Notes: generated from the letters alone by a model not told the origin. 64,000 nucleotides of DNA from Candidatus Avispirillum faecium (GCA_904396155.1 CAJFOI010000022.1:12607-76606); one strand, 5' to 3'; positions 11,330 through 35,793 are shown, counted from the first letter of the stretch. Program-made: numbers and translations.

Positions 11330-11337
11330 TGTATATC

Positions 11338-11364
11338 AAAAAAACGCCCAATAGGGCGTTTTTT
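11338..11364 (+). terminator. Intrinsic (bidirectional) terminator
   Basis: AAAAAAACGCCC-aata-GGGCGTTTTTT. Confidence 0.8.
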
Positions 11365-11381
11365 GTATTATATTGGTGCAT

Positions 11382-11443
11382 TTATCACTAAATTCTCTGC
11401 ATTATCCCAAATACTTGCAATGTTATATTTTACAATATATAAT
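11382..11443 (+). promoter_or_regulatory. Putative AgrA-dependent promoter of the biosynthetic cluster
   Basis: TTATCACTAA 11382 and TTATCCCAAA 11402 (20-bp pitch); TTGCAA-17-TATAAT. Confidence 0.65.
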
Positions 11444-11735
11444 GCAAATAAAGTATTTATTTTGTTAGTTTTTGACAATTAGGAATGAAAGCTAAAGTAT
11501 TCATTCCTGTGCTACTGCAAATAATTTTCCAACTATGAAGAGGTAACGAGATGAGATTAATATTCATAGACTATCTGCCAAGCTTTGAAACCGGTGAGAT
11601 AGATAATATAATTAAGTTTAGAACATAATAGATTTTCTAAGAACAATATAGGAAAATTGAAAAAATTTTATATGCGCGAAACATTGTTTTTTCTACCAAG
11701 CTGTGAGCGTGTTGGGGTCATTAAGGATAAAAATA

Positions 11736-12422: not shown

Positions 12423-12726
12423 CTAATTGGATTATGCAAAAAAGATGGAGTCATGAACATTGCAGTTGAACATGTATCGGAGCAAAAGATTACCGGTACC
12501 AATTACAGAATTTAATTGCAATGAAATTATTTGTCGTACTAATACAAATTTATTGGCGTCCGATTTCCTTTGTCTAAAGGTAGTATTCTTTTAATGATGT
12601 GGTGAACTTTTCTGACGGCAAAATGGTTGAAGTAATCGTATTGAATTTAATATGCGCAAAAGTATAAGTGTTAACGTTTTGATAGATAAACATTTAATAG
12701 AGCGCTACTAACATTGGGAGGCAATT

Positions 12727-16307: not shown

Positions 16308-16365
16308 ACGAGTTTCCTGCCGCTTTTTGTAGAGATTGTACATTTATAAAAGGATGGTTTGTATT

Positions 16366-18870: not shown

Positions 18871-18905
18871 AAATATGAACGCTATAGTGAGCAATGGAGA
18901 TTGAT

Positions 18906-19976
18906 ATGGAGAGTAATAACCTTTTTTTTAGATTATGTGATCCTTTACAAAAGCATATTTATGAGGCGGATTTAATTAGCAATCAGGAGGAATTATTTGG
19001 TCAACTAGTGTTGAACAAAATGGTTGGAATTGCATTTAAAAAGCTTGAATACAGAGCGTTAAATCCTGAGTTGAGAAAGACACTAATTTTGCTAAATGAT
19101 AACTATCTAAACAGAAGTGCGCTGTACAAAAAACAATTAAAATATTTGGTTAATAATATATTAGCAAATGCAGAATTTGACTATTCTTTGTTGAAAGGAT
19201 CATTTTTATCAACTAATTTGTATAAATCTGGGCAAAGGGTTTCCAACGATTTTGATATACTAATCAGTCCGGAAAGCATCTCAAGATTGCAAAAATTATT
19301 AATTGACAATGGTTTTGTACAGGGTGGAGTTAACAGTTCTAACGAAATTGTTCCGGCCACAAGAAGGGAGATACTAGAATCAAGATTGAATTTTGGTCAA
19401 ACAGTTCCATTTGTGAAAATTATCGAAAACTCTCCATTGATAATAGACATAAATTTTTCTCTTGATTTTAAAGCATCAGCCAACAACATCGTTGGAGAAT
19501 TTTTGAATGATATAGTGATTGCAACCTTTGAAAATGTTCGCTTTAAGACTTTAAGTCCGATTAAATTCTTACTTCATCTTGCATGTCACCTATATAAAGA
19601 ATCTACTACATACTACTGGGTTGCACGCCGTAGAGATTTAATGTTGTATAAATTTTGCGATATCTATATGTTTATTAATAAATTTGGAACGATAGAATAT
19701 TTCTCGGATTTAATTGAACAGATTAAAAAATACAATTTTGAAAAGGAATGTTATTATACCTTTGAAAATTCTTCTATAATTTATCCGGCTTTAAATAAAA
19801 TCGATGGTTTTTTGAAAGTGAAAGAATCAATTAAACCTGAAAATTTGGATTTTATGAAACAAATCGTATATCCGCGAGAGAAAAAACTTTTCAAGTATGA
19901 TATGAGTTTCACAGATTGGTTTTTCTGCCCTGATCGCGTTTCTCAATTGGAGGAAATACCATATGAAGAATATTGA
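18906..19976 (+). CDS. Nucleotidyltransferase family protein (NTP_transf_5-like)
   Basis: LLKG..L...LY....RVSNDFDILI and LLHLACHLYKE. Confidence 0.75.
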   Translation: MESNNLFFRLCDPLQKHIYEADLISNQEELFGQLVLNKMVGIAFKKLEYRALNPELRKTLILLNDNYLNRSALYKKQLKYLVNNILANAEFDYSLLKGSFLSTNLYKSGQRVSNDFDILISPESISRLQKLLIDNGFVQGGVNSSNEIVPATRREILESRLNFGQTVPFVKIIENSPLIIDINFSLDFKASANNIVGEFLNDIVIATFENVRFKTLSPIKFLLHLACHLYKESTTYYWVARRRDLMLYKFCDIYMFINKFGTIEYFSDLIEQIKKYNFEKECYYTFENSSIIYPALNKIDGFLKVKESIKPENLDFMKQIVYPREKKLFKYDMSFTDWFFCPDRVSQLEEIPYEEY

Positions 19977-20814
19977 TGTGGACTTGTCACGATTCAATTC
20001 TTTCCAAAGTTTATCTTGTGTCGAAAGCTATTTGCTGTATATTTTGAGTACCAATAATTATGATTATAGGTATCTATATGCACTAAGCTATGTGAGTTTT
20101 TCTGAGATAATGAACTACTTTTTTAACGAAAGGAAACGGTTTGAGTATTATAATGGGGTCCCTAGATTACAACAAATAGCAAGTAAGTATAATATAATTT
20201 TAATAAAAGATTTTGACAAACTAAGTATAAATATAGACTCAAAACATGATTATTACTTATTGAGACTTTGCCCGGAATATATTGAAGAAACTTACGGAGA
20301 AGTAACATGGCGTGACGACCATTATGTGCTATTAGCGAACTACAATGATTCAATGTGGACATACATTAATGATGACCCGCGAGATTGTAGAACATTAAAC
20401 TATAATGAAATGTTAACTGCATATGCAGGCAGTTTGATAAGAATTGATCTGGTAAGTGGCATAACGGATAAAATGAAAGATTTGTTGCTACAAGGATTTC
20501 TTGATAGCATGTCCGAAAATAAAAAAACATTTTCAATACCTTCAGTGGATGATATCATTGCTGCGAGAAATGCGCTGGCAGTTTTACGAATACTCAGACG
20601 AAGGATATACGAATATTGTTTTCAGTTTATCTGCTGCGACTTTATGGTAGATTATTTAAACGAATTGGACAAGCAATTTTCACTGATAGAGTATATGCGG
20701 TTGCGTAATAGAGTCAATTATAGCAAAATTGATAATATGTTTTCGACGTTGCAGCAAAAAGATTCAAAAATTATAGAAGCAATAAATGGAAAGATGTGTG
20801 AAAACTATGGATAA
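19963..20814 (+). CDS. Papain-fold protein, BtrH-N-like (putative ACP-dependent acyltransferase)
   Basis: N-terminal SCVE, later HYVLL and YIND; adjacent to an ACP. Confidence 0.5.
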   Translation: MKNIDVDLSRFNSFQSLSCVESYLLYILSTNNYDYRYLYALSYVSFSEIMNYFFNERKRFEYYNGVPRLQQIASKYNIILIKDFDKLSINIDSKHDYYLLRLCPEYIEETYGEVTWRDDHYVLLANYNDSMWTYINDDPRDCRTLNYNEMLTAYAGSLIRIDLVSGITDKMKDLLLQGFLDSMSENKKTFSIPSVDDIIAARNALAVLRILRRRIYEYCFQFICCDFMVDYLNELDKQFSLIEYMRLRNRVNYSKIDNMFSTLQQKDSKIIEAINGKMCENYG

Positions 20815-21046
20815 AGAATATGAAATTATTAAGGTTATTTCGTCAGTTTCTCCTTTTTCTGACGAAGATATAAGCTTAGAAGATGAGCTTGCTTCAATCG
20901 GAATTGATTCGTTAAAGAAAGTAGAGTTAATAGTAGCTATTGAAGATGCCTTTAGTATAGTCTTTGAGGATGCGGATCTTGATCCCGTACAGTTAGTAAG
21001 TGTATCTGATTTTGTAAAACTGGCTGAAAAGTATTTAAACAGGTAA
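20807..21046 (+). CDS. Acyl carrier protein
   Basis: GIDSL motif; small and acidic. Confidence 0.9.
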   Translation: MDKEYEIIKVISSVSPFSDEDISLEDELASIGIDSLKKVELIVAIEDAFSIVFEDADLDPVQLVSVSDFVKLAEKYLNR

Positions 21047-21052
21047 TTTGAT

Positions 21053-22492
21053 ATGTGGAGCTTTGTAGAAAACTGTTTGAAGCGTTATCCGGAAGCGAAA
21101 ATCATATTTGGTGAACAAACACTTTTTTACCGTGAAATGCAAGATAATGTAGTGCTGCATGGAGAAAATTTGAAATCAGCATTAAAACCAAGGGCGAAAT
21201 GTGTAATTCTATGCGACTCTGGGCTAAATGCTGCCAAGGCTATTCTTGCATGTTGGTACGCTGATATGATCGCAATTCCCCTGTCAAAAAATTACGGTCA
21301 GGATCACTGCAACAAAATTATTAGTTTGACTGATCCGGATATTCTTCTTACAGATAACGATGATTGTTTATATAGGTATACATATAATTTAAAGAAAAAA
21401 ACTTTTTTGGGAAAACGTGACGAAATAAATCTGGAATCGGAATTAAACGATATTGTCCTAATCATGTGCACTTCGGGAACTACAGGGAATCCTAAAGGTG
21501 CGATGATAACCAAAGACGGCTTACAAAAAAATGTTAAGGGAATAGCGCAGTATTTTGATATAAACGATACAGACACTATACTTATTGCAAGACCGCTGTA
21601 TCATTGCGCTGTTTTAACAGGTGAATTTCTTGTCTCGCTTTTTAAAGGAGTTAATATTGCATTTCTTGATGAAGCTTATAATCCAGTAAATGTCATTTCT
21701 TATATGAGTAAATGTAACGCAACAACGATTTGCGGCACACCGACTTTGCTAAATCATATTTCAAGACTTATAAAGCTTAATTATCGAGAAAATTTAATCA
21801 AAAAAATTGCTATAAGCGGTGAGTGTCTCAGTACCAGCATCGCAAAAAACATCAGAGATGTTTTTCCAAATACGGACATATACAGCATATATGGGTTGAC
21901 AGAAGCATCACCCCGTGTCTCATATCTGCCTCCGGCAGATTTTGACAAGTATTCAGAATCTGTGGGTATTCCGATAAACGGAGTAAGAATTAAAATTATT
22001 GATACGCAAACCGGTGTCGATTTGCCGGAAAATAGTCGTGGACTTGTTATGGTTTCATCTCCTAGCTTAATGAAGGGGTATTATAAAGATCAGAGTTTAT
22101 CACAGAAAACTATTGTGAACGGGTGGCTTAATACCCATGATATCGGATATAAAGATGAAAACGGTTACTTATATATTCTTGGACGAGCTGATGATATGAT
22201 CATAAAAGCCGGTATGAATATTTATCCAAGAGAAATTGAAAATGCAATCAATAAATTACCTGAGATTTCAGAATGCTTGGCGTACGGCAAGAAAGGTTTA
22301 TTGGGAGAGGATATTATTATTGATATTGTCTTACCAAAGGAGATCAAAAACATTAGTAAAAAAGACCTAATGGCAAAGATTAAGGAAATTTTACCTTCAT
22401 ACTTAATGCCATCAAGTATAAATATCGTTGATACAATTCCCCGGAATGCTTCGGGAAAGTTGATACGCAGTAAGAGGTTTCATAATGAATAA
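21053..22492 (+). CDS. AMP-binding (acyl-adenylate-forming) ligase
   Basis: TSGTTGNPKG, YGLTE, GRADD, GK motifs. Confidence 0.92.
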   Translation: MWSFVENCLKRYPEAKIIFGEQTLFYREMQDNVVLHGENLKSALKPRAKCVILCDSGLNAAKAILACWYADMIAIPLSKNYGQDHCNKIISLTDPDILLTDNDDCLYRYTYNLKKKTFLGKRDEINLESELNDIVLIMCTSGTTGNPKGAMITKDGLQKNVKGIAQYFDINDTDTILIARPLYHCAVLTGEFLVSLFKGVNIAFLDEAYNPVNVISYMSKCNATTICGTPTLLNHISRLIKLNYRENLIKKIAISGECLSTSIAKNIRDVFPNTDIYSIYGLTEASPRVSYLPPADFDKYSESVGIPINGVRIKIIDTQTGVDLPENSRGLVMVSSPSLMKGYYKDQSLSQKTIVNGWLNTHDIGYKDENGYLYILGRADDMIIKAGMNIYPREIENAINKLPEISECLAYGKKGLLGEDIIIDIVLPKEIKNISKKDLMAKIKEILPSYLMPSSINIVDTIPRNASGKLIRSKRFHNE

Positions 22493-22934
22493 TGTAAATA
22501 TGAATCCAAACAATTTAAAGCTTTAGACGAGTATAATAATTTTATATAAAAATTAGACGGATTTGTGCTTGTGAAGGGATCTTCCAGATCAATTATTACT
22601 GTAGTGAAAAAAGGTTCTCCTATTTTATAAAGATGAAAGATAGAGGGAAAACAAAAGAAAATAAATTTCTAAAATAGCATCTGTAACGATAGTAGTAAAA
22701 TAGTTGAATCTTTGCTGTTAAAAGTTATCTTTAATAATTATACGAAAAAACTATGTTGTTGATGAAATGTAATACCTTTTGATATTAGTTATTTCTTGGG
22801 TAAGGATTTATAAGAACTATAGTCGGAGTTAAATAAAGAAATAATCCAATCTTATTTACAAATCAATAAATTTAACAATTACCCCAATGGAAAGTGTAGT
22901 ATTTAGTTAAAGTATTGAAAGAAATGGTACCGAT

Positions 22935-23186
22935 ATGATGAAATATGAAAAGAGGATTCGTGAAATTATTGCAGCAAATTTAAAGACAAAAATAGATATT
23001 GATGATTATGATGCAAATGGAGATTTGCGTAATATTGGGATGAATTCTATTTTATTTGTATCAATAGTTGTTGCTATAGAAAATGAATTTGGGATTAATT
23101 TTCCAGATGACAAACTGCTTATTTCTGAAGCTGGAACAATTTTATTGCTTAATCAAATTTTGGAAAGTATTATTGTTAATTATTAA
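22935..23186 (+). CDS. Acyl carrier protein (NS variant)
   Basis: GMNSILFVSIVVAIENEFGI. Confidence 0.8.
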   Translation: MMKYEKRIREIIAANLKTKIDIDDYDANGDLRNIGMNSILFVSIVVAIENEFGINFPDDKLLISEAGTILLLNQILESIIVNY

Positions 23187-23310
23187 AAAATGTTTACCTA
23201 CCTTTTAACTCCTTAAATTCTATCAAAACGTTATATTTATCTTTTTAATTTTTTATAATAATGTAGATATTGTTAAAACTATTGTATTTTAAAATAAAGG
23301 ATTAATTTAA

Positions 23311-24042
23311 ATGGAATTTACTTATTCGAATTATAAAATATTATTAAAAAGCATTATTGATACTGGAAAATATATGGATTATTCAGTGGTTAATAATAGT
23401 ATTCCTAACTTTATTGTTTTACGTCATGATATAGAATTTTCATTGAAAAAAGCTTTAATAATGTCAGAAATAGAGAAACAATTTGGAATAGTTTCTAGCT
23501 ATTTTATCCAAATACAAAATGATTTTTACAATGCTTTATCTAACGAAAGCATAAAGATAATTCAACAAATAAATGCCAACAACCACTATATTGGATTGCA
23601 TTATCATTTGAGCAACAAAAATTCTTTTGATTTTTCGGAGATAAGTAATGAAATACAAAGACAGTGTGGAGTTTTGTCTCAGTTTTTGAATATACCTATT
23701 ACCCGATTTTCTATTCATAAACCCACTGAACAAATTTTAAAAAATACAATCAAAATAAAAAATATAATTAATACCTATGATCCGCTATATTTTACTTATA
23801 TTCCTAATTTTGAAACCAAATTTGAAAATGAGATCAATGTTAAATATTATGCAGATTCTTCTATAAAATGGAAGTATGGGATACCTACTAAAAAAAATTT
23901 TGAAAAATTTAATCGAATTCAAATATTAATACATCCATATTCTTGGTATTCTAGTAAAAAAACTTATGATGAAATATCAGAACTTACAATTGCTGATAGG
24001 GTAAAAGAAATAATTACAATTTATGAAAAAGAACAAAAATAA
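23311..24042 (+). CDS. Polysaccharide-deacetylase-like (CE4/NodB-fold) protein
   Basis: LRHDIE, IGLH, H.P and LIHP motifs. Confidence 0.65.
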   Translation: MEFTYSNYKILLKSIIDTGKYMDYSVVNNSIPNFIVLRHDIEFSLKKALIMSEIEKQFGIVSSYFIQIQNDFYNALSNESIKIIQQINANNHYIGLHYHLSNKNSFDFSEISNEIQRQCGVLSQFLNIPITRFSIHKPTEQILKNTIKIKNIINTYDPLYFTYIPNFETKFENEINVKYYADSSIKWKYGIPTKKNFEKFNRIQILIHPYSWYSSKKTYDEISELTIADRVKEIITIYEKEQK

Positions 24043-24974
24043 TGGAGAAAGTATATATGCAATATAAAGTTATAGTGATAGGAACAACAGATTTCACTTA
24101 TCAATTACTAAAACGAATACATAAAAAAATTGTACCTATTGATCTTATTGTTACAATTTCAAATGATGTAACAAAAAAAAATCATATATCCAACTATACA
24201 TCATTAGATAAGTATGCCTGGGAAAACAAAATAGAACTATTCAAAGCGCCCAGTTATTATTTGAATGATGACGTTTCCTGTGAATTCTTTAGAAACAATT
24301 CGTTTGATTTAGGTATATCGGCTGGTTGGCAAAGGAAGATACCTCCAAACATATTAAGTGCAGTGAAATATGGGATATATGGATTTCATGGAAGCTGTGG
24401 ATATTTACCATATGGTAGAGGAAGATCACCCTTTAATTGGTCCATTATTAATGGAGATAACAGAATTATACAAAACCTTTTTAAGTATGATGATAATTTT
24501 GATTCACCAAATATTTTTTCAAAGAAAATGTTTGAAATAAATCATCATGATACCATACAGACAATACAGTTTAAATCAATAATCATTGCAGTTAGGCAAA
24601 TAAAAGAACTTTATACTGCTTATCAAGAAGAATATATACCCATTAACACTGAAAGTTATGATTTTGACTTGTGGTATGAAAAGAGAACACCTTCTAGCGG
24701 GAAAATAAATTTTCATGATAAAACAAGAGAGATATATAATTTAATTCGCGCTACTACAAGACCTTTTCCGGGAGCATTTGCATACACAGCTAAAGGAAAA
24801 GTTTGTATATGGAAGGCCCACCCTTTTGATTCTATTATTGATTTTTCAAAGTATCAACCTGGACAAATAATAGACGTAATAAATAATATGCCAATTGTTA
24901 GAACAATAGATGGTTCTTTAATAATTAAGGAATATGAGGGGGCTTTACTATCGACAAGAGATATCTTATATTAA
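24042..24974 (+). CDS. Formyltransferase (Fmt/ArnA-like, probably sugar N-formyltransferase)
   Basis: GWQRKIP, GFHGS..LP.GRGRSP.NW, LIRATTRPFPGAF. Confidence 0.85.
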   Translation: MEKVYMQYKVIVIGTTDFTYQLLKRIHKKIVPIDLIVTISNDVTKKNHISNYTSLDKYAWENKIELFKAPSYYLNDDVSCEFFRNNSFDLGISAGWQRKIPPNILSAVKYGIYGFHGSCGYLPYGRGRSPFNWSIINGDNRIIQNLFKYDDNFDSPNIFSKKMFEINHHDTIQTIQFKSIIIAVRQIKELYTAYQEEYIPINTESYDFDLWYEKRTPSSGKINFHDKTREIYNLIRATTRPFPGAFAYTAKGKVCIWKAHPFDSIIDFSKYQPGQIIDVINNMPIVRTIDGSLIIKEYEGALLSTRDILY

Positions 24975-25055
24975 TGCTTTATAATATATTTAAAAATTTT
25001 AATTGGGCAGCATCATCCTTATATTTTTATATGACTTATGTAAAAGGTGTAATAT

Positions 25056-28000
25056 ATGAATTTACTAAATAATCTACAAAGATATTATCCATTAATAAGT
25101 ATTTTACAAGTAAATAAAATATTAAATAAATCAATTATTCGAGAATTAAAAGTAGATGACTATTATATTATAGAAAATTTTTGTAATAGTGAATATTTAA
25201 CAAATATTTCCGTAAAAGCTGAAAAAGCGCTTTGTCAAGATGAAAGCGTAGACTCTATTATATTATACTATTTGGCACATATAGAATATGGAAAGCATGT
25301 TGTATTAAGTGATACATTGATAAAAATAATTAATGAAAATCTATTTTATTGTGGTCAATATCGGGTTCCGTATTTAGATGTAAGACAGATGATTTTAGAA
25401 ACGAATAAATATTCATCAGGTGAGATAGTACTTCTTAACGTGATAATAAATACTTGCTATAGTAAACCAGGTATCGTTGGTTCAAATGTAGATATGTATA
25501 AATTAAAAGAGTATAATGAAGATGTGAGTAAAATAATTAACCAGCATACCAACGTAGGTTCAGATGGATTTAACAATGAATATTTGATTTCACAAATGAA
25601 AGGTGGGCTGTCTATTGATGTTTTATTGGGGTGTCCAATGGGGTGTGCTTATTGTTATAGAATAGATAGTGAATATTCTGAAGAGTATATCGAGCATTGG
25701 CACCCTGACTCTAGAATTTGTAGCGAAGTAATTATTGAACGCTTAATGTCGCATCCATGGTTTACCCCACATGTTACTCCTCTTGGAATACATATGTCTA
25801 CTACTGAAGCTTTTTTGCCTCAAATATGGCCAATTACATTAGAAATACTCAATTTACTTGAAAAGTATAAATTAACTAATAGGGTTAGTATAATAACGAA
25901 ATGGTTTTTGGATGAAGAACAAATATTGAAATTGGAACAATTCAAATATATAGATATAGATATTTGTGTTTGCTATTCAGGCATGCCTACTAATATAGAA
26001 CCAAGTAGTTCTAAAAAAAGATTAGGCTTTTTGAAAAGACTAGTGGATTCTAAGTCGCCTCATATCCATGCAATAGCGTATTATAGACCAATAATCGAAG
26101 GATATAATACTTCAGAACGAATTATTAATGAGGTGGTTTCTGATATAAAGAATACTGGTGTGAAAGTAATTGTATTAGGCGGTTTGAAATTTTCAAAAAA
26201 ACATAGAAATTATTTCTTGTCTAAGGGTTTCCCCCTTCCTCGTGGTAATTTTTTGCCTGGGAAAAAAGTTTTACAGGACAAGACAGTATCAAAAATTATG
26301 AAGGCTTTTAAGAATGTTTATGCTGGTGAACCGATTCCTTATATTTTAAGAAGATCCTCTTGCTCAAGAATCATAGCTCACGGTAATAAATACCCTGATT
26401 ATAATGCACATTGGTATAATAAACAAAAAAATTGTATGCTAAATTGTGATCATTATGATATTTGCTCAAAGTGTTTGCCGCCGCAAACTGAAATTGTTTT
26501 AGACTTATTGGAAAGAATTAATAAAGCAAATATAAAATATGTTATAACAAATAATGCATTAATATTATTTACACATATTACCATGTTTGAAAAAACATTT
26601 ATCACTCAAAATATATTTTTCCCTGTTTTGGATTTGTATTCTTTACAAGCTTTGAATGATGAGGGGAAAAATGAACTTCTTTCTAATTATAAACATTATA
26701 TTATTGAATCAATTAGTTTAATAGAAGATGAAGAAGTATATCTATCTTTGTTAAAACTAACAAATATTGATGATTATTCGCGGATAGTTGATTTAATTTA
26801 TAAGAAAATATTGGGTCAAAAGGTAAGCTTAAAACTTTGGTTTGAGGTAAAATGGTCTTACTTATTATTACAATATAAAAATTCTAAAACCGAGGAAAAT
26901 GAACTAAAAATAGTATTAAACTGTATATTGGCATTGATAGATGATTATGTTAAATCTTTAGCTCATGAAAATTTATCACCTGAATATGTATGGGCCATAG
27001 ATGATTCAGGGAGGAATATAATTCATTTGCTAGCTGATAAATTGTTAGAATTAAATTTTGCAACTATAATTGAAGAAACTGACGACGCATGGATATCATA
27101 TGCAGATAGTTATTTTTGTACTGAAAGCTATAATATGTATTCTGATATAAGAAAAATTGGATATGTTTTAGTAATCAAATCACTTTTGTCAAAATACTAT
27201 ATTAATCGTCTTATCTATCCTCTTAATATTGGAATTGTTATTCCTATGTATAATGAGAAGAATACCATTTTGGGACCGACTGAATGTGACGAAGGAAAAA
27301 ACTCTATTTTTGTTAAGTATAAACAAATTGAATGGTTAACTAGCAATTCAAAAATAAAGTGTGATTTTTTGTATGTTGATGATTTTGATCCTAACGGTTC
27401 TGGCGAAATTGCGATGTCAGTTATCAAAAATTCACATGAACTAACTAAGAGAGTTAGAGTTGTTAGCCTGAGTTCAATAATGGCTGACGCCAGTGAAAAC
27501 AACAAATCTGAAAACCCAATAAAAAGATATAAATCAGATGATGGTGAATGGAAGAAAGGTGGGAGTGTATTATGGGGAATGTATGAATTGGCTAAACAAA
27601 ACTATGATTATGTTGCATTTTGCGATTGTGACTTGTTATATCCTTTGGAGCAACTAGGCTTATTATTAGACTTATGTATGAATAATGGTGGAATTTCGGT
27701 AGCATCTAGAAAACTTGATAATTCATTTGGATATTATAATGCGAATGGTATGGATAAAATAGCATTAAAGTATCAACAGTCAATTAAAAGTGTATTTAAT
27801 ATTGAAATAAATGATATCCAGGCTGGATTTAAATGTATGAGTAGTAATGTAGCATTAAAAATTATACCTCAAACTTTTGATAGAAGTCTAAGTTTTGATG
27901 TTGAATTACTATCATTAGCTCAGCAATATGGATATTCAATTAATGAAGTAGGAGTATTAACATTACATGTATATAAGATAGGTAAGGTTCGTACTGCTCG

Positions 28001-28097
28001 AAACTATCTTAAAATGTTTAATAATGCAGTTCAAATTGGTCAGATTCATAATACTTGTGATAAAATTTATGATGATTTGCCGATTTTTCAAGAATAA
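25056..28097 (+). CDS. Radical SAM - GT2 glycosyltransferase fusion
   Basis: CPMGCAYC; C-terminal VIPMYNE, VDD, DCD, DIQAGFK, FDVELL. Confidence 0.8.
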   Translation: MNLLNNLQRYYPLISILQVNKILNKSIIRELKVDDYYIIENFCNSEYLTNISVKAEKALCQDESVDSIILYYLAHIEYGKHVVLSDTLIKIINENLFYCGQYRVPYLDVRQMILETNKYSSGEIVLLNVIINTCYSKPGIVGSNVDMYKLKEYNEDVSKIINQHTNVGSDGFNNEYLISQMKGGLSIDVLLGCPMGCAYCYRIDSEYSEEYIEHWHPDSRICSEVIIERLMSHPWFTPHVTPLGIHMSTTEAFLPQIWPITLEILNLLEKYKLTNRVSIITKWFLDEEQILKLEQFKYIDIDICVCYSGMPTNIEPSSSKKRLGFLKRLVDSKSPHIHAIAYYRPIIEGYNTSERIINEVVSDIKNTGVKVIVLGGLKFSKKHRNYFLSKGFPLPRGNFLPGKKVLQDKTVSKIMKAFKNVYAGEPIPYILRRSSCSRIIAHGNKYPDYNAHWYNKQKNCMLNCDHYDICSKCLPPQTEIVLDLLERINKANIKYVITNNALILFTHITMFEKTFITQNIFFPVLDLYSLQALNDEGKNELLSNYKHYIIESISLIEDEEVYLSLLKLTNIDDYSRIVDLIYKKILGQKVSLKLWFEVKWSYLLLQYKNSKTEENELKIVLNCILALIDDYVKSLAHENLSPEYVWAIDDSGRNIIHLLADKLLELNFATIIEETDDAWISYADSYFCTESYNMYSDIRKIGYVLVIKSLLSKYYINRLIYPLNIGIVIPMYNEKNTILGPTECDEGKNSIFVKYKQIEWLTSNSKIKCDFLYVDDFDPNGSGEIAMSVIKNSHELTKRVRVVSLSSIMADASENNKSENPIKRYKSDDGEWKKGGSVLWGMYELAKQNYDYVAFCDCDLLYPLEQLGLLLDLCMNNGGISVASRKLDNSFGYYNANGMDKIALKYQQSIKSVFNIEINDIQAGFKCMSSNVALKIIPQTFDRSLSFDVELLSLAQQYGYSINEVGVLTLHVYKIGKVRTARNYLKMFNNAVQIGQIHNTCDKIYDDLPIFQE

Positions 28098-28463
28098 TTC
28101 AAATTTACGAGTACATAAGTTCTCAGGTTGTCTTTTAATTTTTATGTTCTCCTCCGGCTTTGCCGGAGGAGGAACCCAAGAGGAAAACATTGCTTAATAC
28201 ATCGAACAACTCGAATTAATAAATTATCTGAGTAAACGTCAATTAAGTTTTAAATTGTCTGTTATAGTTGGTAACGAAAATATTGTAAGTAGAGTACTAT
28301 TTCTAATACCCTTTAGATTGTGTCAATAAGATATCCACTTTGATCTTTCAAGTATCTAACTTTTATCGTGACAAGATTTAATATGAAAACATTTAACTAT
28401 ATCAGCAGTTATTATATAGTAAAACTAGTAAAATATTAAGAACTCGCACTAAACGAGGTATAT

Positions 28464-31031
28464 ATGATTGAAAATAAATGTAAATTAGACATAGAACAGT
28501 TTGAATTTATTAAAAAATGGTTAAAAAATAATAATGAAAAATACAGTAATTTTGACATATATTATTATGCTAAAATGTTATGTAAAATGGGATTAGATCT
28601 AACTAATGATTTTAAATGCAGAAAGGGATGTATTGATTTACATATTCATTCAAATATAAGTGATGGTTTATATGATCCAAAATTAATAGTATTAGCGGCA
28701 GATTATTTGGGATTATCTGTGATTAGTATAACTGATCATAATAGTTTACTTTATTATAAAGATAATAAAATAATTTGCAATGTTAATATTCTTCCTGGTT
28801 TGGAAATAAATACAATTCTTGGAGAGGAAAAAATACATTTACTTTGTTATGGAAAAAATTTGATACAGAATAATGAATTTTTAAGTTATTTAGAAATTAT
28901 TCAAAAGCATTGGAATCTTCGTTACATAATGGCAATAGAAAAAATTAATAAGTATTATTCAATGGCTATATCATCCAAAATAGCGATAAATAATAGAGAA
29001 ACAATAAATAATGAATTATTTAGAAATCATTTAAAAAGTCAAGTTTCAAATATAAGTATTGAAAATATTTTAAAGCAATGGGATAATAAACTCTTTTTAT
29101 ATGAAAAAAGTAATTCATATTTACCTAATACTCTTAATGTAATAGAAGCTGTTGTACGTTGCGGAGGTTTTCCTTATTTAGCGCATTGTAATATACTATT
29201 AAAAGACAAGCCAGAAATAATTAATTTGTTAAAGTCTCATGGCCTACATGGTTTAGAAGCACTGCATCCTGCTTACACAAGAGAAGAATCAATTATGATA
29301 ATTAAAAGTGCCAAAAAATATGGTTTACATTTGTCTGGAGGCAGTGATTATCATGGTAATAATACCATAACAATAGGAAAAGGAAATATAAACAATAAAA
29401 ACTGGAGGGTTCCAAGTGCATATTATTATAACGGGATATGTAAACAAAATGGCATAATTATTTCATCAAAAGAAAAAATACTTATTGACGAATTAAATAT
29501 TGATGAAAAAATATCGTTACTTATACATCCTAATTGTGATATTATTTATGGTAATATTAACAATGGAGTAGTTTTTGGGCGTGTCAATAAAGATAATATT
29601 ACTACAGAAAAAGATCTTTATGAATGTTCAAAAGAAGTTTTAATGTCAAATAATCATCCAATATTAATAAATATTAACCAAGAAGGTGGAAGACTTAACA
29701 CAATAAATTGGAGTTGGGATGATATTTGGCCTGGAAACAATGCACTAGGATGTATAAATAATTGGGATTTAATTAAGAAGTGCTTTGAGGGGATGGCGAA
29801 TGAATTAAAAGCGTTAGGAATCACATGGAATTTGGCTCCAGTTGTAGATGTCCAATTAAATCCTAATAATACCACTACATCTGGACGTTGTTTTGGAAAC
29901 GATTTTTGTAAAGTAGCAAAATATGTAAATTTATTTATTAAAACAATGCAAAAATCTGGTATTGCTACAACCGCGAAACATTTTCCAGGAATAGGTCCAT
30001 TAAATGTGGATATTCATAAAACAGTACCGCATCTTTCCAACATTGATGAATCAAATTTAGTGCCTTTTTATTCTGCAATTGAAGCAAAAGTTGCATCGAT
30101 TATGATAAGTAATGTGGTAATAGATGATATTGATAATCTTCCAGCGTTTATGTCTTATAAAGTTGTAACTGAACTTTTGCGTAAAAAAATGAAGTATGAT
30201 GGAGTTGTGATAACTGAAAATATATCAATTCCTTCATTAGCAACATATAAAATTAATATGGCACAAGCAGCGGTAAAAAGTCTAATTGCTGGATGTGATA
30301 TTGTTTTGTTTGAACCAGATATTACCAAGGAGCATTGCGATGGGCTTTTAAAACAAGAAGAAATTAAAAAAACAATTTATTTGCGTCAATCAATTTGTAC
30401 GGCTGTTAAAAACGCGGTCACTTGTGGACAAATTAATAGAGAACGCTTTTATGAAGCATTAAAACATGTAGAATATATGTACAATACATATGGTATGGTT
30501 CCAAGCAAATTGGGAACATTTTCTGAATTTCTTCAAATAAAAAAAAGTAATCAAAAATTAAAATATAAAGTTGCAATGGATAGTGTGAAAATGTTTTCGA
30601 ATAATATACAATGTGAACTTCTGGATAACTTAGAATTATCAAAGAATATTCTTATTTTTCAAATATGTTATGTTAAGAATGTTAGAGCTGATAGTTCATA
30701 TAATCATGACATAAAATTGAAAAATTTGGCGAATAAATATTTTTATAATTGTGATATTTTATATGTAAGTTCTATTGATGATTTTAATAATATTAAATTA
30801 TCAAACTATGATGTAATAATTGGAATTACTTATAATAGTTATTATCTTTTGGAACAAAAAGAAATTATTAAGTTCTTACATAAATATTTTTCAAAAATGG
30901 TTATAATAGGTATGGGGGCCGATGACGAAAAAGAGGAATTATTAAGTTATGGAATTCCAATTTATATTTCGGCTAAAAATATGAATGCGTATGCATTAGA
31001 GGCGGCATTTGAAATTCTTATAAATAGATAG
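28464..31031 (+). CDS. PHP phosphoesterase - GH3 (NagZ-like) fusion
   Basis: DLHIHSNISDG, TDHN, LAH, GSDYHG; QEGGR, APVVD, KHFPG. Confidence 0.82.
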   Translation: MIENKCKLDIEQFEFIKKWLKNNNEKYSNFDIYYYAKMLCKMGLDLTNDFKCRKGCIDLHIHSNISDGLYDPKLIVLAADYLGLSVISITDHNSLLYYKDNKIICNVNILPGLEINTILGEEKIHLLCYGKNLIQNNEFLSYLEIIQKHWNLRYIMAIEKINKYYSMAISSKIAINNRETINNELFRNHLKSQVSNISIENILKQWDNKLFLYEKSNSYLPNTLNVIEAVVRCGGFPYLAHCNILLKDKPEIINLLKSHGLHGLEALHPAYTREESIMIIKSAKKYGLHLSGGSDYHGNNTITIGKGNINNKNWRVPSAYYYNGICKQNGIIISSKEKILIDELNIDEKISLLIHPNCDIIYGNINNGVVFGRVNKDNITTEKDLYECSKEVLMSNNHPILININQEGGRLNTINWSWDDIWPGNNALGCINNWDLIKKCFEGMANELKALGITWNLAPVVDVQLNPNNTTTSGRCFGNDFCKVAKYVNLFIKTMQKSGIATTAKHFPGIGPLNVDIHKTVPHLSNIDESNLVPFYSAIEAKVASIMISNVVIDDIDNLPAFMSYKVVTELLRKKMKYDGVVITENISIPSLATYKINMAQAAVKSLIAGCDIVLFEPDITKEHCDGLLKQEEIKKTIYLRQSICTAVKNAVTCGQINRERFYEALKHVEYMYNTYGMVPSKLGTFSEFLQIKKSNQKLKYKVAMDSVKMFSNNIQCELLDNLELSKNILIFQICYVKNVRADSSYNHDIKLKNLANKYFYNCDILYVSSIDDFNNIKLSNYDVIIGITYNSYYLLEQKEIIKFLHKYFSKMVIIGMGADDEKEELLSYGIPIYISAKNMNAYALEAAFEILINR

Positions 31032-31097
31032 TTTTTAGTATTATTTTTGGACTTAATATAAAGATATTAAAGATTTATTATAGTAAGTTTTTTAATA

Positions 31098-32333
31098 ATG
31101 GAGATTAATATGAATTATTTAGAAGCTTTAGCAAAACTGGGCGCGAACCATCAGGAGCATTTACTGCGGTATTATAGTGAACTATCATCGACTGAAAAGG
31201 ATGCATTGCTTTATCAAATTGAGCAGTTTGATTTTTCAGAAATAGAAAATTTGAGATCCCATAAATATAAAATGAATATAAGCGATTTGCAAATTATCGA
31301 AACTTTGACTGTAGACGATACAAAAAAACGCGCGATTTGTACAGAGATTGGGAAAAAAGCTTTGGCAAAAGGAAAAATGGGGATTGTCATTTTGTCCGGA
31401 GGTCAGGGCTCAAGACTTGGCTTCCAACATGCCAAGGGAATGTACAATATTGGAATAAAAAAAACGATTACCATTTTTGAAATGCATATTCGTCGACTTC
31501 TTCATTTCAAAGAGGAAACTGGCGTTTTATTGCATTGCTTTATTATGACAAGTTCTCATAATAATAAAGAGATAGAACAGTTTTTTGAAAAAAACAATTA
31601 CTTTGGATATGATAAAAATTATATTCATTTTTATATTCAGGGCAACAATATTACTGTAGATAGGAATTGGAATCCAATGCTTTCTGATAAGAGTACCATT
31701 TGCTATTCACCAAATGGAAATGGCTGTTGGTACATGGACTTGGTTAAAGCAGGCTATAGAGAATTGCTAGAAACAAGTGGAATAGAGTGGTTAAATGTAG
31801 TATCTGTGGATAACGTACTGCAAAATTTTGTTGATCCTACATTTTTGGGAGCCGTTCTCTATGCATCTGCTGGATGCGGTGCGAAGGTTGTATCAAAAAT
31901 TTGTGCTGATGAAAAGATTGGAGTTATTTGTATCAATGGCGGCCATCCAGATGTGTTGGAATATTATGAGATACCAGATGACGTGAAAGGCGCAGTAGAT
32001 GCAACCGGACAACTTTTGTATCGCTATGGGGTCATTCTAAATTATATTTTTCATGTTGCGGAGCTTGACTGTATCAATTATAGTGAGTTACCTGTGCATA
32101 TAGTTAAGAAAAAAGTAGCGTATGTTGATGATAATGGCACATTCGTAAAACCTGATGAAGAAAATGCATGGAAGTTTGAATATTTGCTTACGGATTTAAT
32201 TGCACATACAAGTTCTTGTGTCGCTTTTGAAGTAGAAAGAGATAAAGAATTTGCCCCGATAAAAAATCTAACTGGAATCGATTCTGTGGAGAGTGCGCGT
32301 AGGCTTTTACAGAAAAATAATATTTTACTATGA
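31098..32333 (+). CDS. UDP-N-acetylhexosamine pyrophosphorylase (UDPGP/UAP family)
   Basis: GGQGSRLG..AKG, PNGNG, VDN, KFE, EFAPIKN. Confidence 0.88.
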   Translation: MEINMNYLEALAKLGANHQEHLLRYYSELSSTEKDALLYQIEQFDFSEIENLRSHKYKMNISDLQIIETLTVDDTKKRAICTEIGKKALAKGKMGIVILSGGQGSRLGFQHAKGMYNIGIKKTITIFEMHIRRLLHFKEETGVLLHCFIMTSSHNNKEIEQFFEKNNYFGYDKNYIHFYIQGNNITVDRNWNPMLSDKSTICYSPNGNGCWYMDLVKAGYRELLETSGIEWLNVVSVDNVLQNFVDPTFLGAVLYASAGCGAKVVSKICADEKIGVICINGGHPDVLEYYEIPDDVKGAVDATGQLLYRYGVILNYIFHVAELDCINYSELPVHIVKKKVAYVDDNGTFVKPDEENAWKFEYLLTDLIAHTSSCVAFEVERDKEFAPIKNLTGIDSVESARRLLQKNNILL

Positions 32334-32821
32334 TTTTAATAGATATAAACTCAGAACATAGTTTCATAACATCTTCTTGTATTAAAATATTATATGATTT
32401 TTTTGAAAATAAGAATATGCCATGTTATTGCATTAAAGATTTACTAGATCCAGTTATTGTAGACTTAGTTGATAATAATAAATATATTGCACGAGATAAT
32501 TTTGTACTATGCTCCATTTTAAAAACTATTTGCATATTTGAAGCACAACGTAATAATGAAATAAAATCAAATTCTGTTTTATTTATGAATGATTTTTTTA
32601 ATTATAGTTTTGAATTTAAAGAACAAAATAGTATTAATTATTTATGTAATTTGTGTAAATGCACTTCTGTTAAATATTTAAGTTTTATAATTAGAGATCA
32701 ATTAGCTTTAAAGCAAATTATACCAAATTCATACTTAAATATACATTTCTATATAATAGATGCTAGAAAAGAAATATATTCACAAATTGTCAAAGCGCTT
32801 AAGGAAAGTGAAGTGTATTAA
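32330..32821 (+). CDS. Hypothetical protein; possibly a degenerate dTMP-kinase-like subunit
   Basis: Translationally coupled on both sides; loose pattern similarity to the next gene but no P-loop. Confidence 0.5.
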   Translation: MILIDINSEHSFITSSCIKILYDFFENKNMPCYCIKDLLDPVIVDLVDNNKYIARDNFVLCSILKTICIFEAQRNNEIKSNSVLFMNDFFNYSFEFKEQNSINYLCNLCKCTSVKYLSFIIRDQLALKQIIPNSYLNIHFYIIDARKEIYSQIVKALKESEVY

Positions 32822-33447
32822 TGTTAATAGCAATTGAAGGAATTCATGGGGCTGGTAAATCAGAACTCATAAAAAAAATTCAAAAATATTATAATGGGAA
32901 AATCCCTGTTATAATTACAAATTGGAATTCCTATGAGACTATACATCCTTTATTATACAAATATCGCATTAAAGACCATATGAATGATAAATATACTTAT
33001 TTTCTTATGCAGCTAGCAGATTTTGCTTTTAGATACTATTCAATAATTGAATCTGCTATTGGAGATTCGCAAGTACTTGTAGTCGCTGACCGATATGTTC
33101 GTACAGGATGGGTAAGAGGAATCGTTAGAGGGATAAATGAAGAATATGTTAAGTCGGCGTATTCTTTTGCTAAAGAGCCAGATGTAGAAATATTACTGGA
33201 TGTAGATATAAATATATCGATTTGCAGAAGAAGGCCAACTAGTGATAACATTTGGAAAATAGGAATGGGTGTATTCTCTAGTAAAACTCAGTTCAGTGAA
33301 TTGGAATATAGAAAATATTTAACAATTTCACGTAATTTATATTTAAAATACGCTATAGAGAATCATTCGTTAATTGCAAAAGATCATCTACCTCTTGATT
33401 TATGGAAAGCACTGTGCCAAGAAATAAACCACAAATTGTTATTTTGA
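32821..33447 (+). CDS. Thymidylate (NMP) kinase-like protein
   Basis: IEGIHGAGKS P-loop, DRY, PD...LD. Confidence 0.85.
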   Translation: MLIAIEGIHGAGKSELIKKIQKYYNGKIPVIITNWNSYETIHPLLYKYRIKDHMNDKYTYFLMQLADFAFRYYSIIESAIGDSQVLVVADRYVRTGWVRGIVRGINEEYVKSAYSFAKEPDVEILLDVDINISICRRRPTSDNIWKIGMGVFSSKTQFSELEYRKYLTISRNLYLKYAIENHSLIAKDHLPLDLWKALCQEINHKLLF

Positions 33448-33799
33448 AAAAATAGTTATAAATTCCCATGACGACAATATCGTTATGAAATAATAGATTG
33501 AATATGAAGGATAAGAGTGGATGATGTTAAAGACTGAGCAACGTTCAAGTAGAAAAGTTTGTTTGATATTTGAAAAAATATGGTGCATAAAGTTTTGTAT
33601 TTAACAGATTCATCTTGTCAGTTATTGATTTATTACACGAAGAGTTTCAGAAAGAGTGGTATTTTTGTTTACATTAAAAGAAAAGGAAGGGCCTCTAAAT
33701 ATTACTTTCCATGGTCGAAAGTATTTTTGCTGGTCCCATTCTACAAAAGAATTATAACAATACTAGCCATTTTCTGTAAGTAACCAGGTAGGACTTATT

Positions 33800-34765
33800 A
33801 TGAAGATTATAGCAACAATTTCAACTAAATGTTCCGAAAAAGATTTTGATAATCTTATTGAAACTTGTCTTAGTAATTATGTTAATAATTTTCGGTTTAA
33901 TTTAGCTAAGTTTAATGAAGAAGAATATGATTTATTTACAAAAAAATGTAAGCTCCTGCACTCTGAAAATAACATTTTGAGTTTCGATATTCCTTTTCCT
34001 GGCATGAAACCGCGAATTTTCATATATGAATATCCAAGACACATAACTAAGGGAGAATTTATTTATTGCTCGAATTCTACTAAATCAAATTGTTATATTA
34101 ATGTGGATAATTTTTATAATTACTTTAAATTAGGAAATAATTATTATTATCAAGATGGTATTGGTTTTTTGACAGTAGAATATATAAGTGCCTCAAAAAT
34201 TGTATTTAGAAGTGAAAATGAATTTGTTTTATGTTCAGGAAAGTCTTTAACAGGTGGGGAAACTCTAAAAACTCATATCAACAAAAGAATAATAGACTTA
34301 TTAAATAATGTGAAACCAGAAGAAATTTGGTTATCATTTGTTGAAGAGCCTATGTGTGAATCATTACTTCTTTCATACCTCGAATACTCTCCTCGTATTT
34401 TCTACAAAATTGAAACATTAAAAAGCTACGAAAATATTTATAATTTATTAACTCTAAGTGACGCTGATATTGTCATTGCAAGAGGTGACTTAGGCACAAG
34501 TTTCTGCTATAATTTAATAGATATTCAATATAATCTATTAAAAATGTCCAAGAAGTTCAATAAAATGGTTTATTTAGCAACTGATTTTTTAAAATCCATG
34601 AATATATCAACACTGCCATCAAGAGCAGATATGATAGATATACAGTTTGCTGTTCAGACACAGTGTGATGGTATTATGCTGAATGTATCAAATTTATTCA
34701 ACAATTTTTCACATCAAGTAGAATATATCAGAAGATGTGAAGAACAAATCAAAAGGTCATGTTAA
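33800..34765 (+). CDS. Pyruvate-kinase-like protein (A/B domains only)
   Basis: KIIAT, RFN, SFVE, KIE, ARGDLG, PSRA; 321 aa, lacks the C-terminal domain. Confidence 0.8.
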   Translation: MKIIATISTKCSEKDFDNLIETCLSNYVNNFRFNLAKFNEEEYDLFTKKCKLLHSENNILSFDIPFPGMKPRIFIYEYPRHITKGEFIYCSNSTKSNCYINVDNFYNYFKLGNNYYYQDGIGFLTVEYISASKIVFRSENEFVLCSGKSLTGGETLKTHINKRIIDLLNNVKPEEIWLSFVEEPMCESLLLSYLEYSPRIFYKIETLKSYENIYNLLTLSDADIVIARGDLGTSFCYNLIDIQYNLLKMSKKFNKMVYLATDFLKSMNISTLPSRADMIDIQFAVQTQCDGIMLNVSNLFNNFSHQVEYIRRCEEQIKRSC

Positions 34766-35640
34766 ATTTAATATCCAAACAGTTTGTATAAATTTTTCGT
34801 GAGTTTAGAGAATATTTACAAGCTGCAGCTCAATTTGATTAATTGATACATGTATGAATATGTAAAAGATCAAAGGAATATTAAAGAATATCAACATTTG
34901 GTTTCTCTGGTGGTTGGTGTTCTCCTTTTGAAAAATAAAAATAGTAGTGCATATGATTTGCTGGAACTAAAATTATATAGAGCTTTACCCATTTACACTG
35001 CCAGATCACCGGGGAAATTGTCAGACTGTTTTATGTTGCCGTGGGTTTTGTTTATGCAAATACGAAAAAGAAATAGCATAAATTCGGATTCATGCGCATT
35101 GAAAATTTGGAATATAACGAGAAAGAAGTGTGCTAAGTTATCGTAAACGAATTATTCATTGGGGATATAACTCGTCTTGGTGCAGAAGTGTGCCGTGACT
35201 TACGCTACAATGGCCGTATTGAATAAATTCCCCCGGGAGTATGTTCTCCGGTAAGCATATTGAAAAATATTGAATTCAGTCGTTATTTCGAAACACGGAA
35301 ATCCTGTTATTGCAAATGTGTTTATGAGAATGAAGTTTATGGAACGTTGTGGATCAATACTGAGAAATGATAATAATATAGACATCTTGTGAAAAAGAGA
35401 ATATTGGAGCTTTTCATGTTTAGAAAGTAACTTGTTCAAGATCATTTTCTAGATACTAAACAATTCAAATTTTATCCTGTCAGTGTTTGGATCTGTACAA
35501 CCAAATATTTAGGGTCAAAAGGGCGTATGAAGCCCAAGTATTCATGCACCCTTTTGTGTTATCAATCAATCGTTTATACAGACGATTGGTTTTTATAAGT
35601 GCAAAAAAGGGAGTGAAACAATGGTTATAACAACGCGCGT

Positions 35641-35793
35641 TTAATAAACTATAAAAGGGATCGCCAACCATTGAAGTATCGAGCTTATAAAATGCTCGTC
35701 CATAACAATCCAAAGCAATTTGGATGCTGTTTCCATAGCGACATCTATTTCATGCAGTTCATCTGCCATATTGATTTGTTCTTCTCGTGTCAT
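35641..35793 (-). CDS. Small hypothetical protein (50 aa; possibly truncated by the cargo junction)
   Basis: GGAGG RBS; MTREEQINMADELHEIDVAMETASKLL... Confidence 0.45.
   Translation of the reverse strand: MTREEQINMADELHEIDVAMETASKLLWIVMDEHFISSILQWLAIPFIVY

Follow-up and report, generated by a model that had tools for sequence, protein, structure and literature searches.

A mobile island of Candidatus Avispirillum faecium carries a rare radical SAM-glycosyltransferase cassette and may encode an exported aminosugar nucleoside

In tunicamycin- and butirosin-type pathways, a radical S-adenosylmethionine (SAM) enzyme, a glycosyltransferase and a sugar N-deacetylase are combined with an acyl group that an acyl carrier protein (ACP) delivers to the freed amine, and in the Arn pathway N-formylation is transient, taking place around transfer by a family 2 glycosyltransferase (GT2). 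Two further systems invite comparison, namely the 4'-thiothymidine cluster thmA-C, in which a nucleoside kinase and a nucleoside triphosphatase are reported to accompany a radical SAM enzyme (PMC12691670), and Ophion, which is reported to consist of the radical SAM protein OpnA, the PHP protein OpnB and the phosphoribosyltransferase (PRTase) OpnC (bioRxiv 10.1101/2025.09.30.679545). The locus considered here lies at positions 23311-34765 of a 64,000-nucleotide stretch of DNA (‘the window’) from Candidatus Avispirillum faecium (GCA_904396155.1 CAJFOI010000022.1:12607-76606), where it constitutes the distal third of a low-GC island (~6382-35680, + strand; 29.3 kb, 31.2% GC). It contains eight co-directional open reading frames (ORFs), all on the + strand, which were identified by Pfam, NCBIfam and solved-structure searches and by two structure models:

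23311..24042, + strand: CE4/NodB-fold de-N-acylase-like protein, 243 amino acids (aa), predicted from an AlphaFold model and Foldseek
24042..24974, + strand: ArnA/Fmt-type formyltransferase, 310 aa (Formyl_trans_N and Formyl_trans_C)
25056..28097, + strand: radical SAM-GT2 fusion, 1013 aa (relatives carry PF04055 and PF00535)
28464..31031, + strand: fusion of an N-terminal PHP phosphoesterase with a NagZ-like family 3 glycoside hydrolase (GH3), 855 aa (PF02811; PF00933, E 6.6e-53)
31098..32333, + strand: UAP/AGX-type UDP-N-acetylhexosamine pyrophosphorylase, 411 aa (PF01704)
32330..32821, + strand: 163-aa ORF without detectable relative (Pfam, NCBIfam, BLASTP, hhalign and ESM Atlas)
32821..33447, + strand: thymidylate kinase (TMK)-like P-loop kinase, 208 aa (PF02223; GxxGxGKS and DRY motifs)
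33800..34765, + strand: pyruvate kinase (PK)-like protein, 321 aa (PF00224 barrel, no C-terminal domain)

We favour, tentatively and short of confidence, the reading that these eight ORFs form the nucleotide/sugar half of a cluster that is probably under quorum-sensing control and whose product would be an exported aminosugar nucleoside. Its likeness to thmA-C is drawn from gene content and consists in a radical SAM enzyme, a nucleoside or nucleotide kinase and a nucleotide phosphohydrolase in a compact, horizontally spread unit (PMC12691670); beyond these, the cassette described here contains a GT2, a GH3 and a UDP-N-acetylhexosamine (UDP-HexNAc) synthase, and further genes of the island encode acyl-ACP, CE4-like and PK-like proteins and a formyltransferase. 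The likeness to Ophion is again drawn from gene content: a radical SAM protein and a PHP-domain protein share one compact, mobile locus. However, a PRTase domain is encoded by none of the 23 island ORFs, and the PHP domain is here fused to GH3. What the locus would share with prokaryotic viperins is the logic of nucleotide modification by a radical SAM enzyme beside a dedicated nucleoside monophosphate (NMP) kinase, and there are weak matches to PADLOC kinase models; the 1013-aa protein itself, however, has no PADLOC match, viperin ranks 27th among its generic radical SAM fold matches (E 1.6e-3), and the radical SAM domain is not viperin-like. Arn-like features are a formyltransferase whose best solved match is ArnA, an enzyme of predicted CE4 fold whose fold matches include ArnD, and a GT2, all in one locus, whereas the island is devoid of a UDP-glucuronate dehydrogenase/oxidative decarboxylase, an aminotransferase, a membrane-anchored GT2 (ArnC) and ArnT. 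The likeness to tunicamycin- and butirosin-type pathways is one of logic, the sole link being a BtrH_N annotation in a related plasmid cluster of Clostridium perfringens (see below).

Seven of the eight gene calls made in a first-pass annotation of the sequence hold, namely those of a deacetylase-like protein, a formyltransferase, a radical SAM-GT2 protein, a PHP-GH3 protein, a UDP-HexNAc pyrophosphorylase, one dTMP-kinase-like protein and a truncated pyruvate kinase. The first of these holds at the level of the predicted fold only: Pfam and NCBIfam gave nothing useful for the protein (PF01522 does not match), and its AlphaFold model (pLDDT 90.3) matches CE4/NodB deacetylases, among them ArnD, with a Foldseek probability of 1.00 but modest TM-scores of 0.40-0.45. 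Invariant residues of the protein are RHD, GLH, H136, DS..W and LxH. As a separate observation, its neighbours in the ESM Atlas are clusters of which 80-88% of the recorded members are viral (TM 0.90-0.93), and one uncharacterised Caudovirales protein in BFVD resembles it (TM 0.73-0.77). The best solved relative of the formyltransferase is the N-terminal domain of ArnA (E 3e-18), with whose catalytic His and Asp it aligns, while the catalytic Asn of ArnA is replaced by Gly (24357-24365, residues 106-108); the score against the NCBIfam ArnA equivalog is 120 bits versus a cut-off of 777.

The 1013-aa fusion protein consists of a radical SAM domain (residues ~95-540), a helical linker and a GT2 domain (residues ~720-1000) with a DCD motif. 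Its CPMGCAYC motif (CxxxCxxC), which is invariant in all seven aligned relatives, is accompanied by four further invariant Cys, and a model of the radical SAM domain (pLDDT 70.9) gave generic radical SAM matches only. The GH3 domain retains the Asp-His dyad and contains KHFPG..D.H; at the position of the Asp of the solved NagZ TD motif, which we take to be the catalytic nucleophile, five of six aligned cassette members have Glu (30207-30215, residues 582-584, in the window), and the protein scores 135.8 bits versus a cut-off of 207 for the NagZ equivalog. Since active-site residues are replaced in both the GH3 domain (Glu for Asp) and the formyltransferase (Gly for Asn), both may have shifted in function. 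Finally, the UAP-type enzyme matches solved UDP-GlcNAc pyrophosphorylases at E 4e-63 versus 6e-7 for UDP-glucose enzymes, and its sequence reads LSGGQGSRLG, in which GGQGxRLG is presumably the loop motif of UAP/AGX-type pyrophosphorylases.

Where the first-pass annotation saw a pair of dTMP-kinase-like genes, we find a single kinase and an orphan ORF. The kinase (32821-33447) matches TIGR00041 (E 8e-12; 45.2 bits, below the cut-off of 83.25) and PDB entry 2plr (E 2e-20), and is 44% identical to a gene of a related cassette in Fictibacillus. That cassette has two TMK-like genes, and the 163-aa ORF stands where the first of them would be; a reading of it as a degenerate TMK is not supported, as no similarity to TMK is seen by BLASTP, hhalign (probability 1.2%) or ESM Atlas. 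The PK-like protein has PF00224 only and no PF02887, scores 95.6 bits against TIGR01064 (cut-off 306.4), retains the catalytic motifs KIE, ARGDLG and SM..P.RA, and has one close database relative at 40% identity. Because the host genome also encodes a canonical PK (417 bits) and has three other TMK-family matches, the TMK-like and PK-like genes of the island are extra, divergent copies beside the housekeeping ones, and as such they fit a dedicated role. Gene content points to the combined nucleotide and aminosugar chemistry that had been put forward in the first-pass annotation, and from the extra kinases and the company of the distant radical SAM relatives (see below) a putative dedicated phosphorylation route, as proposed there, is a fair deduction.

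Relatives of the radical SAM-GT2 fusion are rare. A collection of 5.8 billion proteins holds only six, of which four are full-length at 40-41% identity, and a radical SAM profile run against 1.84 billion cluster representatives yielded seven proteins above 470 bits, with the next at 263 bits and below. An alignment-based pattern scan of one genome per species (185,579 species) located the radical SAM gene in 23 loci, where a locus scan with the single protein had given GT2-domain relatives only. These loci belong to Micromonospora (9), Streptomyces (8), Kitasatospora (1), Streptacidiphilus (1), two actinomycete metagenome-assembled genomes, Fictibacillus nanhaiensis and Anaerocolumna jejuensis. 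GH3 and GT2-like genes each neighbour the radical SAM gene in 21 of the 23 loci, the two exceptions being contigs of less than 3 kb; an Ldh_2 gene is present in 21 loci and is missing in Anaerocolumna. Compared with one actinomycete reference locus (L026), the 20 others have a small P-loop protein in 8 cases, an NTP_transferase in 18 and a NUDIX protein in 9, and beyond these shared genes the flanks of the actinomycete cassettes are not conserved. The Fictibacillus locus comprises UDPGP, an HTH-TPR regulator, Ldh_2, the radical SAM gene, a glycosyltransferase-like gene, PHP-GH3 and two TMK-like genes, and continues with luciferase-like, CYTH, nucleotidyltransferase and CAAX-protease genes; that of Anaerocolumna reads GT2, glycosyltransferase-like gene, PHP-GH3, radical SAM and GT2. 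On the flanks of the Kitasatospora cassette (locus L017), the genes at 16740-17609 and 4777-6111 encode a 5'-deoxynucleotidase of the HD_3/YfbR-like type and a regulator of the GntR-UTRA type.

Across these loci, the radical SAM enzyme thus recurs with a glycosyltransferase, a hydrolase resembling NagZ, a kinase of the P-loop type, a nucleotidylyltransferase for sugar 1-phosphates and a phosphohydrolase for nucleotides (PHP, NUDIX or HD). The radical SAM enzyme, a GT2, a NagZ-like GH3 that may or may not carry PHP, the P-loop kinase and the sugar-1-phosphate nucleotidylyltransferase constitute a rare conserved cassette, and a description of it was found neither in the Pfam, NCBIfam and PADLOC libraries nor in a literature search.

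The distant relatives of the radical SAM domain suggest that its substrate is a nucleotide. The next-nearest proteins are radical SAM enzymes of ~350 aa, which give only faint matches to the PA0069/Rv2578c family; the latter, which we take to be related to spore photoproduct lyase, is matched by the domain in the window at E 7e-5 (22 bits versus a cut-off of 360). Among plasmids, 24 records have radical SAM relatives at 26-30% identity, and in four of four plasmids inspected (L039 8100-11719; L040 4926-7221; L041 4953-7299; L042 4923-8168) the radical SAM gene forms an operon with a 3'-5' exonuclease (DEDDh) and a small AAA/P-loop ATPase of ~195 aa. In one case the operon also includes an HD protein and in one an aldo/keto reductase, and in one case genes for a thymidylate synthase and a nucleoside diphosphate (NDP) kinase lie upstream. 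It is the company of the exonuclease, the P-loop ATPase and nucleotide hydrolases that points to a nucleotide. As an aside, this plasmid operon looks like an undescribed candidate defence system: no PADLOC 2.0 model covers its radical SAM protein, and a literature search did not retrieve a description of the operon.

The remainder of the island, upstream of the eight ORFs, bears on the fate of the product and comprises, apart from the integrase, the following genes:

8440..11329, + strand: agr-type quorum-sensing genes (Pfam matches), consisting of the next four
8440-9021, + strand: AgrB (PF04647, E 8e-41)
~9014-9136, + strand: putative AgrD-like 40-aa ORF (assigned solely by where it lies and by its shape, on direct reading of the sequence)
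9282-10025, + strand: LytTR response regulator (LytTR and Response_reg)
10022-11329, + strand: AgrC-like histidine kinase (HATPase_c_5)
11703..12422, + strand: Sfp-type 4'-phosphopantetheinyl transferase (PPTase; PF01648; AusB-like at E 3e-31, below cut-off)
12727..16307, + strand: two ABC exporter half-transporters, 594 and 599 aa (PF00005; transmembrane-like segments)
16336..23186, + strand: acyl-carrier module (Pfam/NCBIfam)

The components of an agr locus are thus present, that is, AgrB, an AgrC-type kinase and a LytTR regulator with receiver domain by Pfam and, by position and shape, a probable AgrD. The AgrD-like ORF has a GTG start, overlaps the end of agrB, and reads as an amphipathic start, an S/A-rich core and a QPKEP tail; since it is without Cys, its putative cyclic signal would be a lactone. 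The acyl module encodes, in this order, an 844-aa alpha/beta-hydrolase-like protein, an NTP_transf_5 protein, a 283-aa protein without assignment, an ACP, an adenylating enzyme resembling acyl-CoA/ACP ligases and a second ACP. A related acyl-ACP cluster resides on 30 C. perfringens plasmids (hydrolase 24% and adenylating enzyme 28% identical, and an ACP), which also encodes a protein annotated with a BtrH_N domain, ABC-2 transporters and a PHP fragment; BtrH is presumably an acyltransferase from ACP to aminosugar, and no BtrH_N-domain protein was found in the window. In one such cluster (L099 6992-19661) the genes are those of an ACP, an 855-aa alpha/beta hydrolase, an ABC-2 transporter, the BtrH_N protein, an adenylate-forming enzyme, an ACP and the PHP fragment, and the plasmids are mobilizable.

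AgrB, the LytTR regulator, the AgrC-like kinase, the PPTase, the two ACPs, the adenylating enzyme and the two ABC exporter halves are together typical of a cluster for a secreted product. Quorum-sensing-type regulators are linked to the cluster in two Firmicute carriers, agr in the window and HTH-TPR in Fictibacillus. The first-pass annotation had left the choice between three purposes: DNA modification, anti-phage defence and a nucleoside antibiotic. The last of these fits the island best, owing to the combination of agr, PPTase, ACPs, adenylating enzyme, two ABC exporters and soluble enzymes; the second may apply to the core cassette, and the first is without support.

A route to an exported aminosugar nucleoside could then run in seven steps, for which the gene identities are those given above and each step is our deduction. 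(i) The UAP-type enzyme would produce a UDP-N-acetylhexosamine, and (ii) the radical SAM domain would alter a nucleotide or nucleotide-sugar, while (iii) the GT2 domain fused with it would transfer the hexosamine. (iv) The CE4-like enzyme and the formyltransferase would exchange or remove the N-acyl group of the hexosamine in an ArnA/ArnD-like manner and may thereby free an amine for acylation by the upstream acyl-ACP module. (v) The TMK-like and PK-like enzymes would hold the unusual nucleotide as di- or triphosphate, (vi) the PHP-GH3 fusion would take off phosphate and trim or activate a HexNAc glycoside, and (vii) the ABC pair would export the product. The first-pass annotation had envisaged an N-formyl-aminosugar on the nucleotide; by analogy with the Arn pathway, the N-formyl decoration may instead be transient, serving as a handle rather than as a part of the final product, and the freed amine could take an acyl group from the ACP module.

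Several findings weigh against an exported aminosugar nucleoside. A product has yet to be assigned to any cassette member, and the chemistry is thus inferred; the island ORFs encode neither an aminotransferase nor a dehydratase for de novo aminosugar synthesis; and the Ldh_2 gene so common in the other loci is absent from the window. The replaced residues in the formyltransferase (no ArnA Asn) and the GH3 domain (Glu for the NagZ Asp) suggest that either enzyme may act otherwise than assumed. Furthermore, agr, ABC and ACP genes were not seen with the cassette in the 23 loci, and the GC content is 28.3% for 23311-34765 versus 33.0% for 6382-23310 (the distal third being more AT-rich, as had been noted in the first-pass annotation), so that the two halves of the island could be unrelated neighbours. 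Lastly, the neighbouring genes of the actinomycete cassettes and of the distant radical SAM operons favour a role in defence, to which we turn below.

One can go further and speculate, although we consider this rather unlikely, that the cassette represents an undescribed pathway to a glycosylated, radical-SAM-modified nucleotide, which would be intracellular in actinomycetes and bacilli (for example, a sugar-masked anti-phage chain terminator that is unmasked by GH3/PHP or NUDIX), and which would here have been joined to acyl-ACP genes, exporters and agr to yield a secreted, density-regulated acyl-aminosugar nucleoside antibiotic. 

In the window, the cassette is combined with quorum sensing and export on a mobile island that occurs in gut metagenomes, and a gut anaerobe would here have acquired a ready-made chemical weapon. 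Antiviral and antibacterial scaffolds come both from nucleoside natural products and from nucleotide-analogue immunity, and the cassette of the island is a lead for new nucleoside chemistry, with a real chance that a radical-SAM nucleoside/sugar pathway of this kind holds chemistry not seen before. This chemistry is directly testable in cultured carriers, i.e., Fictibacillus nanhaiensis DSM 23009, Anaerocolumna jejuensis DSM 15929 and Micromonospora carbonacea DSM 43168.

Among the alternatives, anti-phage defence is the foremost, although we regard it as unlikely. The core cassette would then make a modified, perhaps glycosylated, intracellular nucleotide that poisons phage polymerases, as do prokaryotic viperins with their nucleotide kinases and, possibly, Ophion; the island would carry the agr, ABC and ACP genes as cargo with no connection to the cassette. 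The plasmid operons of the distant radical SAM relatives adjoin genes for an anti-phage dGTPase (by annotation), GIY-YIG, WYL and TIR proteins, an N6 methylase and toxin-antitoxin systems. The unconserved flanks of actinomycete cassettes speak for defence as well, those of a Streptomyces cassette (locus L013) having C5 DNA methylase, SPDY, NucS-like and SNF2-helicase genes at 29-1390 and 15552-20026. The TMK-like proteins of the window (E 4e-5), of Fictibacillus (E 1e-12) and of Kitasatospora weakly match the PADLOC model PDC-M51B, those of Fictibacillus and Kitasatospora, and not that of the window, also weakly match VakA, and the cassette rides on a mobile island. Ophion reportedly pairs a radical SAM protein with a PHP protein as well (bioRxiv 10.1101/2025.09.30.679545). 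The island, however, is devoid of a PRTase and hence does not encode Ophion. PADLOC yielded no match at the level of a system, nor did any of its models fit the radical SAM, GT2, GH3 and UDPGP proteins, the PK-like and CE4-like proteins or the formyltransferase. Moreover, the quorum-sensing-type regulators (agr here, HTH-TPR in Fictibacillus) and the exporters are better suited to a secreted product. To our knowledge, sugar-nucleotide synthesis, GT2 and GH3 are not parts of the nucleotide-analogue defences described so far.

An improbable alternative is the synthesis of a surface or cell-wall glycan, in which an aminosugar nucleotide would be formylated in an Arn-like fashion, transferred by the GT2 to a lipid carrier, deformylated and flipped by the ABC proteins. 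It draws on the history of the CE4-like/formyltransferase pair, which appears to be separate from that of the core. The CE4-like family occurs in 46 loci, and a formyltransferase 41-53% identical to that of the window is directly adjacent in six of them and 2.4 kb away in a seventh. Judged by their best annotated relatives on plasmids, the usual neighbours are SDR oxidoreductases, nucleotide-sugar dehydrogenases, UDP-glucuronate decarboxylases, family 4 glycosyltransferases (GT4) and AsnB-like proteins, a neighbourhood that, from its gene content, is of the surface-glycan type with Arn-like company. ArnA as the best solved match of the formyltransferase and ArnD among the fold matches of the CE4-like protein agree with such a setting; the GT2 domain has dolichol-phosphate mannose synthase as its only solved sequence match (E 0.001), and the ABC proteins resemble MsbA and PglK as well as bacteriocin exporters, with every match below the equivalog cut-off.

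Because the SDR, dehydrogenase, decarboxylase, GT4 and AsnB-like partner genes are all absent from the island, however, the CE4-like/formyltransferase pair looks recruited, and it is on this pair only that the glycan alternative rests. The GT2 fusion is without a transmembrane segment (such segments were seen for AgrB, AgrC and the ABC proteins only, in a scan of 22 island ORFs that left out the integrase), and none of the island ORFs encodes a dehydrogenase, a decarboxylase, an aminotransferase, an initiating transferase, a Wzx/Wzy or a GT-C protein; polyprenyl-phosphate and Wzx/Wzy-type Pfam families in particular are absent from all 23. The kinase pair and the PHP domain would have no role in such a route, and the radical SAM-GH3-GT2 core was not found in glycan loci elsewhere. 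Location of homologous clusters in capsule or lipopolysaccharide loci had been named in the first-pass annotation as the observation that would speak against a nucleotide product: such a location is seen for the CE4-like/formyltransferase pair, but not for the radical SAM-GH3-GT2-kinase core.

Salvage of GlcNAc is very improbable. The NagZ-like GH3, the kinase and the uridylyltransferase make up a set reminiscent of the NagZ/AmgK/MurU route and might recycle cell-wall GlcNAc to UDP-HexNAc with no special end product, and the GntR-UTRA regulator beside the Kitasatospora cassette would be in line with this. Yet the kinase is TMK-like and not a sugar kinase, salvage would leave the conserved radical SAM and GT2 partners of the GH3 without a role, and the cassette is rare and mobile and not housekeeping. 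DNA hypermodification, by which a modified dNTP would be incorporated or the DNA glycosylated to protect the genome of the host or of the element, hardly merits credence, as all that speaks for it is the kinase chain and the low-scoring match of the radical SAM domain to PA0069, a family like spore photoproduct lyase, while there is no relative in IMG/VR (0 of 29 pattern matches) or among 50,697 phage records, the island ORFs encode no polymerase, DNA glycosyltransferase, thymidylate-synthase-like protein, DNA-binding protein or DNA-glycosyl module, and exporters and quorum-sensing genes would be out of place.

Whichever product is made, the island as a whole is one inserted, horizontally acquired unit, as follows from its integrase, its terminal repeats of ~140 nucleotides (nt), an empty site in a genome of the same genus (G011, 95% complete) and the location of all its genes on one strand:

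6382..35680, + strand: whole low-GC island (GC values and the empty site in G011)
6420..6570, no strand assigned: left terminal repeat (~80% identical to 35499-35649)
35499..35649, no strand assigned: right terminal repeat (partner of the left repeat)
6797..7660, + strand: tyrosine recombinase (integrase) adjoining the left repeat (PF00589, E 6e-26)

The GC content of the flanks is 42.4% on the left and 51.9% on the right. In G011, the sequences matching 6222-6381 (87.5% identity) and 35681-35932 (93.7%) are ~200 nt apart (L091 872-1486), and this locus is the empty site of the island. The repeats, one at each end of the island, are imperfect direct repeats (80% identical), and since unrelated sequence separates the two flank matches in G011, they are part of the element and not a duplicated target. 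Each repeat contains a hairpin and a TCAATCGTT...AGACGATTG palindrome (window 6222-6600 and 35440-35932). The radical SAM part of the fusion was not found in 24 genomes of the same genus and 16 of the same order, many of which are incomplete; the matches there cover the GT2 end only (residues ~834-994).

Scans for regulatory elements and further genes provided few clues. A search of Rfam over 5500-36500 gave no matches at E up to 0.1 and thus no hint of a riboswitch; promoter-like sites number 123 versus 107 expected and no terminator-like site was seen on the + strand, in a scan that is uninformative in AT-rich DNA; and small ORFs in the three larger gaps are not notable. DNA of the island is present as exact, low-depth contig pieces in sequencing runs of three studies, of which two have gut or chicken gut as the label in their records; no meaning attaches to the parts that are not covered. 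One metatranscriptome contributes four exact pieces, 152-264 nt in length (20990-21203, 24757-25005, 29345-29496 and 29702-29965), which were not counted as expression because carry-over of DNA is possible. Just outside the island, a Fic/DOC-family protein is encoded on the right (38229-38969) and an ECF-type sigma factor on the left (4167-4676).

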